NCBI GenBank assembly: GCA_951406725.2
Contig: OX597824.1
Coordinates: 18,538,001-18,602,000 of the forward strand
Direction of reading: 5' to 3'
Length of the DNA stretch: 64,000 bases
Origin: Octopus vulgaris
Taxonomy: Eukaryota
Part shown: one piece after another, positions 13,563 to 64,000 of the stretch
Position numbering within the stretch: position 1 is the stretch's first letter
How the letters are laid out: each line of letters starts with the position of its first letter
Made by a program: the position numbers and the translations under genes
The notes under the pieces: model-generated
What the model was told of the DNA's origin: nothing
Databases searched by the model: none
Seen by the model: the letters and a program-made list of their open reading frames with translations, nothing else

Positions 13563-14100
13563 ATACACTCAATAAACACCAGAGTTTAATCTTGGATTAT
13601 CATTCATTAAAATGTCTCTCAGAAGGAAAAAGAATTGAGTATTATTTCCATTCATCACAAGCGTCAGATAAAAGTAGATAGGAGATACTAAGATTAAGAG
13701 ATCAGTGATGAAGCAAACACGACAGAATGTGATGATGGGATTATTGGCATTTTCTTCTTTTTTTCTTTTTAATTTTTGTCCTTTTAGTTCAACAATCAAC
13801 CTATTATCTCATGGCAGAACCAACTTTGCTTTCATTCTCCATAGTTACTAACCAAGTTCTTAGTTTGATAGAATCGACTATACCACATATATATAGAGTT
13901 TCTATTTGATAGTATTTATATATATATACGAGAAGAAAATGGATGTAAATAACAAGGAGAAATTCGTCGTTTCCGCTGGTATGTCTTTAATTTAATGAAT
14001 TAACAAAGAAGGTAGCATTTACGATCGTTTCAATTTACTAGTTTTAGTAAATATCTTCAGAATGCGAAAAATAAATTGATACATCGGTAATGGTAATAAA

Positions 14101-14331
14101 GGCGGCGAGCTGGCAGAAGCGTTAGCACGCCGGGCGAAATGCTTTGCGGTATTTCGTCTGCCGTTACGTTGTGAGTTCAAATTCCACCGAGGTCGACTTT
14201 GCCTTTCATCCTTTCGGGGTCGATAAATTAAGTACCAGTTAGGCACTGGGGTCGATGTAATCGACTTAATACCTATGTCTGTCCTTCTTTGTCCCCTCTG
14301 TGTTTAGCCCCTTGTGGGTAGTAAAGAAATA
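14101..14331 (+). mobile_element. SINE family B2 monomer with 15-bp TSD
   Basis: A-box-like TGGCAGAAGCG and B-box GAGTTCAAATTCC; TSD GGTAATGGTAATAAA at 14086-14100 and 14332-14346. Confidence 0.92.
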
Positions 14332-14531
14332 GGTAATGGTAATAAATTCAAAATTTGTTAGTCTTATATTATATTTTGTTTTTAAGTTGATTATTCCGCT
14401 GGGGAGTGGATTTCATTGTAATTGATTGGTTAGTTTATGGTTCCACTGGGTAATTAAAGCAGTAATCACCAGGGGCACCATTGGATTTAATTATCCCTTA
14501 GAGATTTTAAACTCCTCTAACTGATACCTAC

Positions 14532-18885: not shown

Positions 18886-19484
18886 CGCACCCCCCCCCAC
18901 TTCTGCCGCAATATCTTAATCATTTCGCATGCTTCCTTGCTTTCCTTCCGTCTTCACTTTTCTTTTATGAGTGACATTTTTTGCTTTAAATTGCGGTCAA
19001 CTGGAGTGTTTAGCGCAGAAAAATAAGCTGCAGCCTCATCAGTATAAAAGGTAACGAAAGAGTGAAAGGAAATACGAAATAAAAGAACAGAACAAAAGAA
19101 GACATCTTTTTCTTGTACTATTTTTGTTTTAATATAAATTTAGTTCATGTTTTTTTTTTTTTTTATTGGTGAGGAAAATAAATGATGTGAAGTAGGAGGA
19201 GGGAGCAAGAAACTTTAAATAAAGTGAAATTTGTAAAATTCATAAAATAGTAATAATGATGTTTTATTTCGAACATTGCATTCAGTACCATTCATGCATA
19301 CAAATACAAAAATCTTAAAATCTAGAGCTTTACAAAAAACGTGTAGGGTGGGAGATACAAGTTGTATAAAGCGACGCGACGGCTCAAAGACGTTATACAA
19401 TGTATGAAGGGACAAGTTTATGAATTTAAGTAAAAACATACAAATATTATGAAAGTGTGCAATAAAAAAAACTGCAATAATAAG

Positions 19485-20465
19485 GGCAGTGAGCTGACAG
19501 AAACGTTAGCACACCGAAAGAAATGCGTAGCCGTATATCGTCTGCCGTTACGTTCTGAGTTCAAATTCTGCCGAGGTCGACTTCGCCTTTCATCCTTTCG
19601 GGGTCGATTAAATAAGTACCTGTTACGCACTGGGGTCGATATAATCGACTTAATCCGTTTGTCTGTCCTTGTTTGTCCCGTCTATGTTTAGCCCCTTGTG
19701 GGCAATAAAAAAAAAAAAAGAAACATTAGCACGTCGGGTGAAATGCGTAGCCGTATATCATCTGCCGCTACGTTCTGAGTTCAAATTCCACCGTGGTCGA
19801 CTTTGCGTTTCATCCTTTCGGGGTCGATAAATTAAATACCAGTTACGCACTGGGGTCGATGTAATCGACTTAATCCATTTGTCTGTCCTTTTTTGTCCTC
19901 TCTGTGTTTAGCCCCTTGTGGGTAGTAAAGAAATAGGTATTTCCTCTTCCGCTACGTTCTGAGTTCAAATTCCGCCGAGGTTGACTTTGCTTTTCATCCT
20001 TTCGGGGTCGATTAAATAAGTACCAGTTACGCACTGGGATCGATATAATCGACTTAATCCGTTTGTCTGTCCTTGTTTGTCCTCTCTGTATTTAGTCCCT
20101 TGTGGGTAGTAAAGAAATAGGTATTTCGTCTGCCGCTACGTTCTGAGTTCCAATTCCGCCGAGGTCGACTTTGCCTTTCATCCTTTCGGGGTCGATTAAA
20201 TAAGTACCAGTTACGCACTGGAGTCGATACAATCGACTTAATCCCTTTGTCCGTGTCTGTCTCCTCTGTGTTTAGCCCTTTGTGAGTAGTAAAGAAATAG
20301 GTATTTCGTCCGTCGCTACGTTCTGAGTTTAAATTCCGCCGAGGTCGACTTTGTCTTTCATCCTTTCGAGGGTCGATAAATTAAGTACCAGTTACGCACT
20401 AAGGTCAATGTAATCGACTAGTCCCTTCTCCAAAAATTTCGGGCCTTATGGCTAGAGTAGAAAAG
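19485..20465 (+). mobile_element. SINE family B tandem array: four B2-tailed units and a final B1-tailed unit
   Basis: Junctions near 19720 and at 19935/6, 20119/20 and 20299/300; CTGCAATAAT repeated at 19472 and 20474. Confidence 0.9.
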
Positions 20466-21559
20466 AAGAAAAGCTGCAATAATTAAAACGATATATTTAA
20501 AGTGGAAGAGTCCATTTGGGTTGATTAGGTCAAATTATTGCCTTTATTATATGCATGCTTTTCACACATCCGCTAAAGTGCCCCTGTTTCATGTAATGCT
20601 GAGTTCGGAATCTTCAATGAAGAGATCTTTGCTTAGATAGGGCGAGTAATGGCCCAAGTCTTTGAGATGAAACGTATGAGAAATATACTCGTTGTATTTT
20701 ACTAATAGTTTATCTTCCTTATGTTGTAGAACAAACCAGTAAATCGTTTTGATATAATAACGCTCATATCGTAAATGTCTTACGTTAGGCTTTTGTTGGC
20801 CTCGCGAAACCATCTTGCAATTCTTTGCTGGAACATTCTAATTATTTATCCGTCGTACCGGAGCCAAGACATTTAAATGCAATGTTGCAGCTTCACAGTG
20901 ATAGACTTTCAGGTAATGTTACCTCAGAAATTCTTCGGAGGAACCTCTTTTTGTGATCGAACTCCTTTCATTATTAACAAACAATTAATGACCACAAATG
21001 AATATCAAAACTCCTCAGAAAGATATACACGTGTGAAAAATAATTGTTGCATTAAAGATATATAAATAAATAAATATAAATATGTATAAAAATATATGTA
21101 AATATGTATAAATATAAGTACATCTTTCTGGGGAGTTTTGATATTGATTTCCTGATATTAATAATAAAATATTATTAAAAAGTATATATGTATAAAATCA
21201 CTTGTGTTAAATATATAAATACTTTAATATTATTAATAATGTGATACAGTTGAGCACACAATATAAATTCAGTATATAATATTCTCACTGAATATAGTTA
21301 ACTAAAGGTTTATGACAATAAATGAATATATAAAATTCTATTCGTAAATGTATCCCTACCGCTACAGTTGATATGTAATCAAGGCATCTCAGAGTAAATT
21401 TTAGTCACTTCCGAACGAGTCAGAAATTAATAAGAATTTTTAAAAAGCAGTTGTTTCTATCATTATCACTGGGCTATAAATTTTGAAGACGAGGGTTACT
21501 GAATCAAATTGGGACCATTTATTTAACCACGGCAAAAACTGAAAAACAGAGTGTCGGTT

Positions 21560-21959: not shown

Positions 21960-22289
21960 TATGTTTCTTTATTAGCCACACAGGGCTGCACACAGACGGG
22001 ACAAATTACAAAGGAGAGCTTTTCTTTTTGGGGAGAAAAAAAAGTGGGATAGGTTTTCGATCAAAAAAGGAGTCGTGAAAAGGAAAGAAAAAAACGATCA
22101 GTAGGGATCGTGTATCACAGAAATATCATGATGTAAAGTATAAAAGGGGAAGCAGATAAGGTTTGTCCGTGGAAAGAAAAGCCTACGGAAAAGAGCACGG
22201 TAACCTCGGTCAATAATGTCACATGTTAACACATTTTTTTTATGAAGTAAATAACTCTCTGTTTTAAATTTTTCCGGGTTCATAGGATT
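21960..22289 (-). mobile_element. Tx1/L1-type LINE 3' UTR, copy a
   Basis: Homologous to 22313-22663, including the ATCCTATGA stop context; bounded by (GACA)n and (GATA)n. Confidence 0.75.
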
Positions 22290-22312
22290 GGATAGATAGA
22301 CAGATAGATAGA

Positions 22313-22840
22313 TTTCTATATTGGCCACGCAGGGCTGAATACAGAAGGGACAAAATACAAAGTAGAGCTTTTCTTTTTGGGAAGAGAAGGAAAAAAAAAC
22401 AAAAAGAAAAGGAGGTCGAATTCCGATCAAAAGGGATCGTGAAAAGAAACAAAAAAAAGTGGGGGCGATCAATAGGGATCGCGTATCACAGAAATGCCAA
22501 TGTAGAAAGGGAAAACAGATTAAGTTTGTATGTGGATAGAAAAGCCTACGGAAAAGACCACGGTAACCTTGGGCAATAGTGTCATGCAAAAAGAAAACAC
22601 ATTACAGTAAGTGGCTCCCTTTTTTCTTTTCGTTTTTTTTCTTTTCTTTTAGTTCATAGGATTATGCGCAAGCTGGCTCCGACATTCATTCATACCATCC
22701 TTGCTACATTCACCCATCTTTTTTGAAGTATTCACTAGACTAAACTGCCCTCTCTATTCTCACCTTCCTCTTCAAGTGATACTTGAAGAAGTTGATGACA
22801 GATTGACCAGAGAGAAGAGTGTTTGTCTCTAGACCTTTCG
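22313..22840 (-). mobile_element. Tx1/L1-type LINE ORF2 C-terminus plus 3' UTR, copy b
   Basis: Minus strand reads KGLETNTLLSGQSVINFFKYHLKRKVRIERAV*SSEYFKK(fs)RWVNVARMV*MNVGASLRIIL*; homologous to 42960-43200. Confidence 0.75.
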
Positions 22841-22889
22841 ATAGATAGATAGATTAGAAATATATGTTTCTTTATTAGCCACACAGATT

Positions 22890-27131: not shown

Positions 27132-27378
27132 TGTCGATGACGCCATTGTTATCATCATTATTGCCGTCGTCGAATTTGCTAACAGCTGTTGTTTTGATCA
27201 GTTCTGCTTTGATCTAGTTGTCCAATTTACAGTCAAAGGCGTTCCAGTCTTGGCCATCCTATTATATTTTTGTAAAGTCGTGTTATAAATGACTACATTA
27301 TCCAAAGTGTCCATCGTTATTTATGACACTAAATGTATTATTTGAATTCCATTTGCTTGCTATATCAAGTAAGTCGAA

Positions 27379-27609
27379 GGCGGCGAGCTGGCAGAAACGT
27401 TAGCACGCCGGGCGAAATGCGTAGCCGTATTTCGTCTGTCTTTGCGTTCTGAGTTCAAATTCCGCCGAGGTGGACTTTGCCTTTCATCCTTTCGGGGTCG
27501 ATAAATTAAGTACCAGTTACGCACTGGGGTCGATATAATCGACATAATCCGTTTGTCTGTCCTTGTTTGTCCTCTCTGTTTTTAGCCCCTTGTGGGTAGT
27601 AAAGAAATA
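27379..27609 (+). mobile_element. SINE family B2 monomer
   Basis: Full head to AAAGAAATA, followed by GGTA. Confidence 0.9.
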
Positions 27610-31701: not shown

Positions 31702-32244
31702 TACAGAGAGAGAGAGGGGTGCGAAAATGAAGATAAAAGAAAGAGACAGATATATAGCAAAATATGTAAAAGTCTTTAGCGTGCAGCTCGAAAGAAAAAA
31801 AAAAACAAACAGAAAAGAAACAAAAAAAATAGACAAAATAAACAGAAGCAAAGCTATTGACTTGAACGCGAGAAAATAAGGAAAATGGTTGTGTCGGACA
31901 TCTATTATTCCATTGATAAACCCCTTTGTTTCCTTTTCAAGGGTTTATTCACTAAATAGCAAATCTGTTTTCTAGATTGCCGTAGATTGTAAGTTATACG
32001 GGTGTGTACATTTGCAATCGTTAAGGATGGTGTTGTGAAATATTAGAAACAATAAGGGTATCTATTGTAATATGAGACTTTGAGGATTGATCCTTTTTGT
32101 TTCAGTTCCAAGTCAGACCCTGATCAAATAGATGTATAATTAAAAACCATTCCAGCTGTGACCATCCCGTCTCTTTTAATTTGATGGTAGACACAGCCAC
32201 TTATGATTAAATTTTTTCTTGTTTATTTTTTATTTTTCTACTGG

Positions 32245-32700
32245 AGATACAAGGCCCGAAATTTTTTTTTTTTTTTTTAAAGAGGGTAGTTAATTACTCC
32301 TATTTCTTTACTACACAGAAGGGGCTAAACACAGAGAAGACAAACAAGGACAGACAAACGGATTAAGTCGATTACATCGACCTCAGTGCGAAACTGGTAC
32401 TTATTTAATAGACCCCGAAAGGATGAAAGGCAAAGTCGACCTCGGCGAAGGTTGAACTCAGAACGTAGCGGCACACAAAATGCCTATTTCTTTACGACCT
32501 ACAAGAGGACAAACAATGACAGACAAACGGATTAAGTTGATTATATCGACCCCAGTGCGTAACTGGTACTTATTTAATCGACCCCGAAAGAATGAAAGGC
32601 AAAGTCGACCTCTAATCACTCCGATCCCCAGTCACAAACTGTGACTTATTTTATCGGCCCCGAAAGGAGGAATGAAAGGCAAAATCGACCACAGCGTTAT
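32245..32700 (-). mobile_element. 5'-truncated B2 dimer (32301-32612) nested in an older B1 copy
   Basis: B1 tail to the left and B1 body to the right; TSD TAATTACTCC (32291) / TAATCACTCC (32613). Confidence 0.8.
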
Positions 32701-36918: not shown

Positions 36919-37491
36919 GTGGAGGCACATGGCTACATGGTTAGAGCAGCGGACTCGCAGTTGAGGGATCGAAGGTTCGAATCTCAGACCAGGCGATGTG
37001 TGTTTTTATGAAAGGCAGCGAGCTGGCAGAAACGTTAGCATACCGGGCGAAATACTTAGCGGTATTTCGTCTGTCGTTACGCTCTGAGTTCAAATTCCGC
37101 CGAGGTCCACTTTGCTTTTCATCCTTTCGGGTTCGGTTAAATAAGTACCAGTTCAAATTCTGCCGAGGTCGACATTGCCTTTCATCCTTTCCAGGTCGAT
37201 TAAATAAGTACCAGTTACGCACTGAGGTCGATATAATCGACTTAATCCGTTTGTCTGTCCTTGTTTGTCCTCTCTCTGTTTAGCCCTTTGTGGGTAGTAA
37301 AGAAATAGGTATTTCGTCTGTCGTTACGTTCTGAGTTCAAATTCCGCCGAGGTCGACTTTGCCTTTCATCTTTTCGGGGTCGATAAATAAAGTACCAGTT
37401 ACGCACTGGGGTCGATGCAATTGACTTAATCCCTTTGTCTGTCCTTGTTTGTCCCCTCTATGTTTAGCCCCTTGTGGGTAGTAAAGAAATA
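36919..37491 (+). mobile_element. Chimera: SINE C head (36919-37010) joined to a B2 multimer (37014-37491)
   Basis: Contains the recurrent AAAGAAATA|GGTATTTCG junction; TTAGAC(AC)nAT on both flanks. Confidence 0.8.
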
Positions 37492-39221: not shown

Positions 39222-39445
39222 AGCTGGCAGAAACGTTAGCGCGCCGGACGAAATGCTTAGCGGTATTTCGTCTGCCGTTACGTTCTGAGTTCAAATTCCA
39301 CCGAGGTCAACTTTGCCTTTCATCCTTTCGGGGTCGATAAATTAAGTACCAGTTACGCACTGGAGTTGATGTAATCGACTTAATACCTATGTCTGTCCTT
39401 GTTTGTCCCCTCTGTGTTTAGCCCCTTGTGGGTAATAAAGAAATA
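39222..39445 (+). mobile_element. SINE family B2 monomer
   Basis: Colinear with 14101-14331. Confidence 0.9.
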
Positions 39446-56552: not shown

Positions 56553-56870
56553 TTGTTTGTTCCTTCTCGAGCCACGGTTGGCTCATAAGGGCTCATAAGG
56601 GCCGGTTTCCCGGTTTCCTTGGCGTATAGGTTCCCTACCTGGACGGGACGACGGTTCGTCGCAGGTGAGCTGCAAGATGCAGGAGGAAAGAGTGAGAGAA
56701 AGTTGTGGCGGAAGAGTCAGCAAAAGTTTCGCCATTACCTTCTTCTGGAGCCACGTGGAAGCTTAGGTGTTTCGCTCATAAACACACACTTATTGTCCGG
56801 TCTGAGATTCGAACCCGCGATCCCTGGATCGCGAGTCCGCTGCTCTAACCACTAGGCCATGCGCCTCCAC
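56553..56870 (-). mobile_element. SINE family C with tail type 4, 12-bp TSD, inside an old B1 copy
   Basis: CAATCCCAGTAT at 56541 and 56872. Confidence 0.9.
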
Positions 56871-56954
56871 ACAATCCCAGTATATAACTGGTTCTTATTT
56901 GCCCAGATGGATAAAAAGCGAAGTCCACCTCGGCAGAATATGCAGATGAAATAA

Positions 56955-57407
56955 TCCCTTATACTGTAGGTACAAGCCCTGAAATGTGGGGGAAGGGATA
57001 TTTATTTCTTTACTACCCACAAGGGGCTAAACACAGAGAGGATAAACAAGGACAGACAAACGGATTAAGTCGATTATATCGACCCCAGTGCGTAACTGGT
57101 ACTTATTTAATCGACACCAAAAGGATGAAAGGCAAAGTCGTCCTTAGCGGAATTTGAATTCAGAACACGACGACGGACGAAATACCTATTTCTTTACTAC
57201 CCACAAGGGGCTAAAAACAGAGAGGACAAACAAAGGGTTTAGTCGATTACATCGACCCCAGTGCGTAGCTGGTACTTATTTAATCGACCCCAAAAGGATG
57301 AAAGGCAAAGTCGACCTCGGCGGAATTTGAACTCAGAACTTAGCGGCAGACGAAATACCGCTAAGCATTTCGCCCGACGTGCTAACGATACTGCCAGTTC
57401 ACCGCCT
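56955..57407 (-). mobile_element. B2 dimer (one head, two units) followed by a B1 tail
   Basis: Recurrent junction at about 57186; B1 tail at 56955-57000. Confidence 0.85.
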
Positions 57408-57519
57408 TATATACTGATGTAGTAATATTTGCTAATTTAATGGGTTTCTAATTTAGATACAGGGGTAGTAATGTTTAGAACCCGAATCAGTCCATACCAG
57501 TGATCTCAGCTTTTTATTA

Positions 57520-61212: not shown

Positions 61213-61861
61213 TATTTCTTTACTGCCCACAATTTGGAACGTAACGTCAGACGAAATACCTATTTCTTTACTACCCACAAGGGGCTAAACACACAGAGGA
61301 CAAACAAGGACTGACAAACGGATTAAGTCGATTGTATCGACTCCAGTGCGTAACTGGTACTTAATTTCTCGACGCCGAAAGGATGAAAGGCAAAGTCGAC
61401 CTCGGCGAAATTTGAACTCAGAACGTAACGACAGACGAAATACCTATTTCTTTATTACCCACAAGGGGCTAAACACAGAGGGGACAAACAAGGACAGACA
61501 AACGGATTAAGTCGATTGTATCGACTCCAGTGCGTAACTGGTACTTAATTTCTCGACGCCGAAAGGATGAAAGGCAAAGTCGACCTCGGCGAAATTTGAA
61601 CTCAGAACGTAACGACAGACGAAATACCTATTTCTTTATTACCCACAAGGGGCTAAACACACAGAGGGGACAAACAAGGACAGACAAACGGATTAAGTCG
61701 ATTGTATCGACTCCAGTGCGTAACTGGTACTTAATTTCTCGACGCCGAAAGGATGAAAGGCAAAGTCGACCTCGGCGAAATTTGAACTCAGAACGCAACG
61801 ACAGACGAAATACCGCTAAGCATTTCGCCCGGCGCGCTAACATTTCTACCAGCTCGCCGCC
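61213..61861 (-). mobile_element. B2 multimer: one head, three ~184-bp units and a deleted stub, inside a 14-bp TSD
   Basis: Junctions at 61260/1, 61444/5 and 61628/9; TSD ACTATTGCTCCATA at 61201 and 61865. Confidence 0.93.
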
Positions 61862-62274
61862 TTTACTATTGCTCCATAACCAGCTAGAGACCATCTCTGC
61901 TGCTTCTCCCATCCTGTGCACAGCTACATTTTGCTTTTGTTCTCTTATCTAATGGCATTCTCCATCCTAAATGGACAGGGAATATAGTATGTGTTCAGCA
62001 ATGTAGTGAAAATTAGTTATTTACTTACAATTACGGTTGATTTTATTCGAATAGATAAGCACCAGATGTTTATGGCTGGTTGCCGACAGATTTTTCTGCT
62101 CTGAAAAGGATTTTACCCTATATATGCTGTTCTGTCAGAATTTAAGCGTTGAAAAATATATCCTTCTACTTGTTTGAAATAAAAAAATATTTTAATGTGA
62201 AATTGTCCAGCAACGACGGGTTACTAGGTTAGTGCGTGTGTGTGTGTATGTATTTGTTTGTTTGTTTTTGTTTT

Positions 62275-63426: not shown

Positions 63427-63656
63427 AATTTCTTTATTGCCCACAAGGGGCTAAACATAGAGGGGACAAACAAGGACAGAAGAAGGGATTAAGTCGATTA
63501 CATCGACCCCAGTGCGAAACTGGTACTTTATTTATTGACCCCGAAAGATGAAAGACAAAGTCGACCTCGGCGGAATTTGAACTCAGTACTTAACGACAGA
63601 CGAGATACCGCTAAGCATTTCGCCCGGCGCGCTAACGTGTCTGCCAGCTCGCCGCC
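63427..63656 (-). mobile_element. SINE family B2 monomer with 16-bp TSD
   Basis: TTTATCAAAGAATATA at 63407 and 63665. Confidence 0.92.
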
Positions 63657-64000
63657 TGATATTCTTTATCAAAGAATATAACAAATCTCATACAACTGAT
63701 CACTCAATCTTGCCCAAAGTTCCACGCAGTAGGACTGAACCGGGAACCATGTGGTTTCTAAGCAAGCTACTTTTATTCATTTCATTTGCCATAGAGGCAG
63801 TACAACGATGAGTAGCTTTGCGGGCTGGACAAGACATTGGTGAGGCGAATGATAATAATACAAGATGATAAGGATGGGAGAAAACAGAAAGCGCCCACTG
63901 ACACTCTGCTTCTCTATAACATTGTTCTTTTAATAAAACACATCTTGAGGTAATAACCCTCTTACAATTTACAATGTTTTACAATTTCTTTGGAATAACA

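Follow-up and report, generated by a model that had tools for sequence, protein, structure and literature searches.

A fixed tail-to-hairpin joint in tandem copies of an octopus SINE, with template switching as its likeliest origin

In 1994, Ohshima and Okada reportedly described the octopus SINE families OR1, OR2, and OK, to which the element analysed here, referred to as B2, may be akin. SINE domains and definitions are treated in PMC4758252, PMC4824008, PMC5804259, PMC5786205, and PMC3531059, and octopus repeats in PMC13282606 and PMC9115989. Head-to-tail chains are reported for the full-length SINE multimers Dip, B2, and Ves (PMC8466645), with up to eight units in Dip, and for dimeric SINEs such as Alu. 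Squamate SINE-derived tandem repeats (sSats) are built of tandem units that fall short of the full SINE, apart from one terminal unit that runs to the SINE end; heterogeneity is seen at the short loci, and the repeats are described as DNA-level subtelomeric satellites and attributed to unequal recombination (PMC10702118). LINE reverse transcriptases (RTs) give rise to template-switch chimeras (U6/L1, SINE/U6, and tripartite), in which several RNAs lie in the same orientation within one insertion flanked by target-site duplications (TSDs) (PMC4476161 and PMC13174262). Template switching in retrotransposition is reported there for the L1, L2, and RTE clades and for SINEs (PMC4476161), and ligation is discussed against template switching as the origin of chimeras (PMC13174262). 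Non-LTR retrozymes, as described in PMC7229834 and 10.64898/2026.07.22.740005, carry a hammerhead ribozyme in each unit.

The B2 element resides in 64 kb of Octopus vulgaris DNA (the whole stretch analysed, called the window), which is microsatellite-rich, non-coding DNA of animal type. The reference repeat at 14101-14331 is 231 nt long. For convenience, element position 1 is window 14101; the family 5' end is at 14099, two bases before position 1. BLAST finds 33 pieces of the B family across the window, of two types: B2, with the reference tail, and an older B1, which has positions 1-166 in common with B2 and a different tail. Four of 24 sequencing runs were compared with 14071-14370 at 85% likeness, namely two sets of DNA contigs (X1 from organism A, X14 from organism G) and two of raw RNA reads, both from G (X23 and X24); X18-X22, with shares under 0.1, were left out. 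The 5' end is marked by 1605 contig loose ends before 14099 in X1 and 1710 in X14. With 33 pieces in the window and 448,579 and 237,659 matching contigs in X1 and X14, B2 is a short interspersed repeat of at least 100 copies, and the X1 number alone indicates a very high copy number. TSDs of variable length, 10-16 nt, flank five of nine insertions in the window. The coordinates of the features are given in Table 1.

Table 1. Features of the B2 element, its TSDs, and its arrays in window coordinates
Feature	Position	Strand	Basis
B2 SINE monomer: tRNA-type head, central body, presumed LINE-type tail ending GAAATA	14099..14331	+	BLAST of window copies
Upstream 15-nt TSD copy of the 14101 monomer, starts GGTA	14086..14100	+	sequence, TSD search
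Downstream TSD copy of the 14101 monomer	14332-14346	+	sequence, TSD search
D-arm-like hairpin; first loop base 14115 (position 15) accepts the second recurrent joint	14109..14126	+	fold; joint 14331 to 14115 in 4/4 runs
A-box-like Pol III promoter motif	14111..14121	+	sequence, by eye
Head hairpin with a 4-nt loop (14144-14147) and a 12-bp stem that counts pair 43-48; units begin at 14148	14132..14159	+	folding, 16-head comparison
B-box-like Pol III promoter motif	14173..14185	+	sequence, by eye; A80 and A81 invariant in 16 heads
Tail end GAAATA, complementary to 14150-14155	14326..14331	+	sequence, folding
Five-unit mixed array (19k): head unit, position-15 joint (about 19715/19719), canonical joints 19935/6, 20119/20, and 20299/300, B1-type tail on last unit	19483..20468	+	
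TSD of the 19k array, one 15-nt TSD, 1 mismatch	19467-19481, 20469-20483	+	TSD search
B2 monomer, tail runs on with GGTA, G43-C48 loop variant; TSD search found none	27377..27609	+	BLAST, TSD search, markers
5'-truncated dimer (32k; 89-231, 48-231) within an older B1 copy; 10-nt TSD starting GG, 1 mismatch	32301..32612	-	
Array (37k): 140-to-74 microhomology joint and one canonical joint (37307/8), units of differing subtypes	37012..37491	+	
B2 monomer, 5' end clipped, no GG run-on	39222..39445	+	BLAST, TSD search
Dimer (57k), canonical joint 57187/57186; second unit with B1-like C59; B1-type tail remnant after	57003..57408	-	
Young array (61k): three near-identical units (0.5-2.7% apart) and a deleted fourth, three canonical joints, one 14-nt TSD	61213..61863	-	
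B2 monomer, C-type tail, 16-nt TSD, no GG run-on	63427..63657	-	BLAST, TSD search

B2 resembles tRNA-derived SINEs in its length of about 230 nt, its head with A- and B-box-like motifs, its shared body, its tail common to another element, its 10-16 nt TSDs, and its very high copy number. We take the two motifs to be A-box-like and B-box-like from the Pol III consensus. B2 differs from tRNA-derived SINEs in two respects: the head has a hairpin of 12-16 bp in place of a normal anticodon arm, and the tail leads, in 9 of the 18 B2 cases in the window, into a unit clipped at its 5' end, always at one and the same base. ARAGORN calls no tRNA gene, and there is no Rfam tRNA match even at E 10. The whole-monomer fold is no better than that of shuffles (z -0.78). 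A Pfam scan of 84 of the 247 complex frames of the window, with most B2-overlapping frames outside the scan, gives no match above the cut-off, and no sign of coding capacity, a retroelement domain, or a partner-LINE RT appears in that set (0 relevant matches; three weak, unrelated ones lie below the cut-off). The motif sought for a link to OR1/OR2/OK or to the CORE/Ceph superfamily was absent from one supplement and from the full texts searched. No description of the fixed 231-to-48 junction was found in the literature searched; subscription papers and Repbase lay outside that search, as did the 1994 octopus SINE paper and the SINEBase supplement, of which either might contain the family or its tandem form.

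The junction acceptor lies in the head hairpin. The stem formed by GGGCGAAATGC (14132-14142) and GTATTTCGTCT (14149-14159) folds at -13.4 kcal/mol, with pair probabilities of 0.85-1.0 in the monomer, and extends to 14127-14164 (-18.9 kcal/mol). An earlier, sequence-only reading of the window gave this hairpin 11 bp and a 6-nt loop and had the array units start at the last loop base. The strength of the stem bears that description out, but its loop does not: pair 43-48 is kept in 16/16 heads (UG in nine, UA in four, and GC in three), with a two-sided change in three related copies. Therefore, the helix has 12 bp and the loop 4 nt, and the units begin at the first base of the 3' arm; G48, assigned to the loop in the earlier reading, is paired in every head and marks the loop/arm boundary. 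A head variant swaps the loop-closing U43-G48 for G43-C48 at 19485, 19719, and 27379. None of the nine units that follow a canonical joint starts with C48.

Covariation of the stem across copies, proposed earlier as a check, is at best weak. For the 11-bp stem it is not above shuffles (295/500 reach the score), it is weak when the D-like arm and the stem extension are included (54/500 for the score and 15/500 for two-sided cells), and for the 16 heads RNAalifold predicts no consensus pairs. Where B1 and B2 differ on one side only, the pairs are kept, as at 34-57 (A-U/G-U) and 41-50 (G-C/G-U), indicating that the stem is older than the multimers. The hairpin is also present in older B1-tailed copies. 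The tail end GAAA(T/C) is also found in an unrelated pyrimidine-rich element (21964-22005 and 22312-22354), indicating that the tail did not arise as a copy of the head arm. Thus, neither the head hairpin nor the GAAA(T/C) tail end is specific to the multimers.

Nine canonical junctions occur in five arrays, and every one joins tail A231 to G48, reading GAAATA-GG(T/C)ATTT. The placement of the junction at the hairpin, as first read, is thus confirmed in 9/9 joints, and it recurs in the DNA of two organisms. Each array has at most three middle units, and all five finish at a proper tail, not at permuted positions. Terminal copies too end in GAAAT(A/T), indicating that position 231 is simply where copying starts. 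The TSD search found no TSD at the 37k and 57k arrays. In the 19k array, the five units are 9.2-13.4% apart, and the diagnostic letters at 125/128 alternate (TA, AT, TA, TA, AT). These mixed units and a B1-tailed last unit lie inside one TSD, indicating that several templates were joined. The 19k array accordingly holds distinct templates in the same orientation within one TSD, as template-switch chimeras do; nested insertion could also produce this arrangement. In the 19k, 32k, 37k, and 57k arrays, the units differ by 9-13% and are no closer to each other than unlinked copies are.

The window also holds joints of other kinds. At 37149/37150, position 140 is joined to position 74 with 4 nt of microhomology, and the last 61k unit has a large deletion (61232-61238), indicating that non-canonical switches or deletions occur too. 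B2 arrays lie inside or directly before B1-type sequence (32230-32700; 56940-57003, minus strand), so that B copies are found inserted in their own family. Tandem arrays of the TRIM/LTR kind were considered and rejected, in view of TSDs of 10-16 nt and the absence of LTR-internal alternation.

These arrays differ from each of the described systems. Multimers such as Dip join full-length monomers (for Dip, according to PMC10702118), whereas the internal octopus units start at one exact base and are missing their first 47 nt, the A box among them. As in sSats, the B2 units (48-231) are a portion of the SINE behind a full head. However, sSats have at least four middle monomers, are homogenised, and are subtelomeric, whereas B2 arrays are dispersed, comprise 2-5 units with at most three in the middle, are 9-13% divergent in 4/5 cases, and are flanked as a whole by TSDs, with an intact end tail. 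Being dispersed, TSD-flanked, and tail-ended, the B2 arrays appear to be retrotransposed. In contrast to U6/L1 chimeras, whose L1 side is variably truncated (PMC4476161 and PMC13174262), the two B2 partners come from a single SINE family, and neither side of the joint varies. In contrast to non-LTR retrozymes as presented in PMC7229834 and 10.64898/2026.07.22.740005, B2 has a Pol III-type head and no Rfam ribozyme (none at the gathering score across the window, and none at E 10 within the 19k array), and its arrays start at a head and end at a tail, without evidence of circles.

The sequences on the two sides of the joint behave differently. T219 is present in 9/9 tails that precede a canonical joint. 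Just past the joint (17 nt; sites 59/61/64), there are four haplotypes and one variant, and the B1-like C59 occurs in 2/9 downstream units and in 0/10 B2 heads. The linkage across the joint is therefore one-sided, with a fixed tail lineage before it and variable sequence after it, and the haplotype changes fall within 11-16 nt past the joint. Among the nine tails without a canonical joint, GG follows in three (binomial P 0.003) and GGTA in two (P 0.0004). All three GG run-on tails are T219; for C219 tails with GG the count is 0/3. The sample behind these tail statistics is small (5 arrays and 18 tails in one window), and with each array counted a single time the link to tail type is borderline (Fisher P 0.055). 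Marker 195 has no clear link to the joint (5/8).

The same features appear in the DNA contigs. Among the 15 of 653 joints listed, the canonical joint (14331 to 14148) is present in at least 30 contigs of X1 and at least three of X14, and the consensus of 817 X1 loose ends after 14335 continues the unit. By depth, about 20% of X1 tails and 5% of X14 tails run on with G (ratio 4.1), and the corresponding T219 shares are 87% and 24% (ratio 3.6); contig depth is a crude measure, not copy number, and these figures come from the 40 of 220 letter rows listed. Thus, the G run-on share roughly tracks the T219 share across the two runs. In addition, at least 13 X1 contigs stop at the tail plus GGTATT(T) before a new head (joint 14335 to 14097).

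A second recurrent joint connects 231 to 15 (14331 to 14115) in at least three X1 and at least four X14 contigs, and in both RNA runs. It lands on the base that opens the loop of the D-like hairpin, where just 2 bp can form across the junction. In the window, a C219 tail precedes the joint at 19715/19719, which appears to be a decayed form. The RNA reads contain the position-15 joint 755 and 382 times and the canonical joint 60 and 57 times; this excess may reflect one expressed locus and is not a measure of prevalence.

These data favour the direct repeat GGTATTT behind the tail, over an inverted mimic of the arm, as the guide of the reaction, and template switching by an RT is the likeliest route to the fixed joint. 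The reading that we favour, and to which we give an even chance, is that the joint arose once, has been inherited as a GGTATTT run-on, and attracts the RT by direct microhomology at the head hairpin. An inherited run-on fits the exact joint, the fixed lineage upstream and variable sequence downstream, the mixed units within one TSD, the GG run-ons, and the lack of solo copies starting at 48 (none among the 33 BLAST pieces in the window, against nine joints). One lineage, of tail subtype T219, would likely have gained the joint once, after which its RNAs would carry GGUAUUU past the tail, a short direct repeat of the head 3' arm. A putative partner LINE RT would start on the SINE tail of such an RNA at a genomic nick and would pause as it opens the head hairpin of 12-16 bp. 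Its cDNA, with an end complementary to 48-58, would then anneal to the repeat past the tail of another junction-bearing RNA, and the RT would go on into the second tail, by which a unit would be added and the exact joint recreated. Copying would stop at a full head, which would leave a head plus n units in one TSD, and later homologous duplication would alter the unit number, as proposed for the 61k array. Pairing between tail and arm possibly helped the founding event and would be unneeded afterwards.

Some observations sit less easily with an inherited joint. The near-identical 61k units need a separate duplication step. Moreover, the joint falls precisely on the hairpin apex and on the one place open to pairing by the tail (8/199 start positions), a coincidence that this reading leaves to the founding event. 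The joint also places TATTT two bases past the tail (window 14150-14154 and each canonical joint), which may provide a leaky but defined RNA end; TATTT occurs in the head as well. In a mammalian SINE construct, TATTT ended Pol III transcription in 42% of cases (PMC8466645). As a moderate Pol III terminator, it makes RNAs that end in the run-on plausible, but its presence in the head counts against an inherited joint insofar as it cannot be a strong one.

The alternative that survives best, although we hold it to be unlikely, is self-targeted insertion: the partner endonuclease would prefer GGTA-like sites and nick B copies at 47/48, and the 5' side would be resolved by homology to the host head, giving a seamless tandem. 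It predicts the one-sided linkage and the GG run-ons too. The TSD of the 14101 monomer starts with GGTA and that of the 32k dimer with GG, the last 19k unit carries a B1 tail as an older host would have, and B2 copies lie inside or beside B1 at 32k and 57k. However, a fragment of the host head (1 to about 62) is expected before the new head and is found in 0/5 arrays, and the corresponding joint is absent among the 15 of 653 joints listed. The C219 tails have no GG preference (0/3), the 61k units have private variants in common, and the last unit of the 19k array begins with G48, yet both heads of that array have C48.

Events at the DNA level only, which we rank behind self-targeting and likewise regard as improbable, would require one founding joint followed by unequal crossing-over, slippage, and gene conversion, together with retrotransposition of read-through multimer RNAs. 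The position of the hairpin would then be incidental, as in SINE-derived satellites. Stepwise duplication is what the 61k array resembles, with units 1 and 2 being 0.5% apart and both 2.2-2.7% from unit 3, and the joint itself is invariant and linked to T219. A precedent is offered by the squamate repeats, in which one terminal unit is extended and which have been ascribed to unequal recombination (PMC10702118). In 4/5 arrays, however, the units are as far apart as unlinked copies, and the haplotype change within 11-16 nt past the joint needs an exchange hot spot there.

The sequence-only reading had proposed that the tail replaces the 5' arm, that the junction rebuilds the hairpin, and that tRNA-splicing- or RtcB-like ligation or else a template switch makes the joint. 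The pairing on which these proposals draw is real in part. Only 8/199 start positions (42-49) give a Watson-Crick stem of at least 5 bp with the tail, a match of about 4% by coincidence if the joint arose once, and such pairing could have helped once. With C61, the 3' arm is the best partner of the tail among 195 windows (-11.1 kcal/mol); with the common T61 variant, the tail:arm duplex falls to -5.5 kcal/mol and the best site is lost. In intact RNA, the native 5' arm holds against the tail (probability of displacement 0.0; the tail duplex has -11.1 kcal/mol, the native one -18.2), whereas in unit-length RNA without the 5' arm it is predicted to pair with the 3' arm at P 0.44-0.65 in 2/4 units, and at 0.11 and 0.002 in the others. 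The rebuilt hairpin is marginal, with only 5 bp: the 14-mer folds at 0.0 kcal/mol, and the stem has a probability of 0.00-0.21 in whole arrays and 0.01-0.98 in local pieces of 47 nt. By cross-junction folding gain, position 48 is only 109th of 189 and, in a second scan, 54th of 199. Tail:arm pairing may nonetheless have aided the founding joint.

Ligation could exploit this pairing in the absence of a ribozyme. A host nuclease would cut 5' of GGUAUUUC in the loops of heads and junctions, the tail would pair with the freed 3' arm, and RtcB would seal circles or mixed multimers for reverse transcription by the LINE enzyme. We place this route, which is doubtful, after the DNA-level one. It would account for an exact joint, for the restriction of stems of at least 5 bp to positions 42-49, and, by joining in trans, for mixed arrays, and the ends are predicted to meet in 2/4 unit-length RNAs, where the arm with C61 is the best of the 195 windows. 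RtcB circularises retrozyme monomers in vitro (PMC7229834), and RNA ligation is one proposed route to U6/L1 chimeras (PMC13174262). Against it, the junction stem is improbable in whole arrays and dependent on C61, the position-15 joint forms without such pairing, and the arrays are not circularly permuted and end with terminal copies in GAAAT(A/T). The splicing of tRNAs cuts at sites set from an intact tRNA body or at a bulge-helix-bulge. In B2, some 20 nt separate the site from the tRNA-like body, and it tops a plain stem of 12-16 bp with no bulge-helix-bulge; neither a ribozyme nor a tRNA is matched by Rfam or ARAGORN.

The two RNA runs show no pile-up of RNA starts or ends, which is a weak test, given that they come from a related organism, are unstranded, and were covered to about 6% of each. 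Between 85 and 88% of the matched RNA reads run on into other sequence. Junction-spanning RNA reads exist, and the same joint is also present in the DNA. With unstranded reads, flank run-on, and the joint in DNA, the RNA runs neither show nor exclude ligation. Of the two routes named in the sequence-only reading, the template switch is thus the likelier, and ligation is left without positive evidence, since pile-ups (in that weak test), a ribozyme, solo 48-starts, and permuted ends are all missing and the second joint is unpaired.

Least probable of all is end-to-end jumping of an RT that runs off loop-cleaved, tRNA-half-like SINE RNAs at G48 or A15 and lands on any SINE tail, making the joint afresh each time: both recurrent joints do lie at loop edges of two head hairpins, template jumping by the R2 protein and tRNA halves in LINE chimeras are reported (PMC11194090 and PMC13174262, respectively), but solo 48-starts (0 against nine joints) and ragged joints (9/9 are exact) are predicted, and the T219 link and the GG run-ons go unexplained. 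Two further processes were rejected by inspection: spliceosomal back-splicing, as there is no AG directly before G48/G49 and no minus-strand GT donor, and cleavage of an IRE1-type loop, by comparison with the consensus that IRE1 sites follow.

The joint is a real, genome-wide feature of one SINE lineage and, as template-switch multimerisation, is of a new form. If the joint is indeed inherited as a run-on, a direct repeat of 7-11 nt at the SINE 3' end would act like a retroviral strand-transfer region, and one insertion could string together several RNAs, shuffle subfamilies, and swap tails. The arrays would then record, in nature and in countable form, how a LINE enzyme switches templates, and retrotransposition would offer a way from SINE to tandem repeat, a step usually ascribed to DNA recombination. 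Were ligation to hold instead, it would add a new RNA-processing step to SINE biology, and B2 would be the first SINE spread via a ligated RNA intermediate.

Further copies were sought with short patterns. A 34-nt pattern has 0 matches in metagenome contigs, and a 20-nt pattern has two in metagenome contigs, 0 in genome contigs, and 0 in viral contigs. Neither match is a B copy: L001 is a chance match of bacterial appearance, and L002 is a different tRNA-headed repeat. At 1050-1269, L002 combines this other head with the central motif of the B family, which suggests a domain common across animals. In the window, a separate repeat with a much more canonical tRNA-like head adjoins two arrays (36920-36995, plus strand, and 56800-56875, minus strand).

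In the RNA runs X23 and X24, places with A>G (18 and 21) and T>C (22 and 25) are more frequent than in the DNA runs (9 and 9; 8 and 6). A-to-I editing of the B repeat would give such an excess, in a comparison of unmatched RNA and DNA. Finally, a pyrimidine-rich element on the minus strand (21964-22600, with a fragment at 22867-22883) lies inside TATC/TGTC microsatellites, where two copies and the fragment end in the B2 tail. The element at 21964-22600 is a candidate for the 3' end of the partner LINE.
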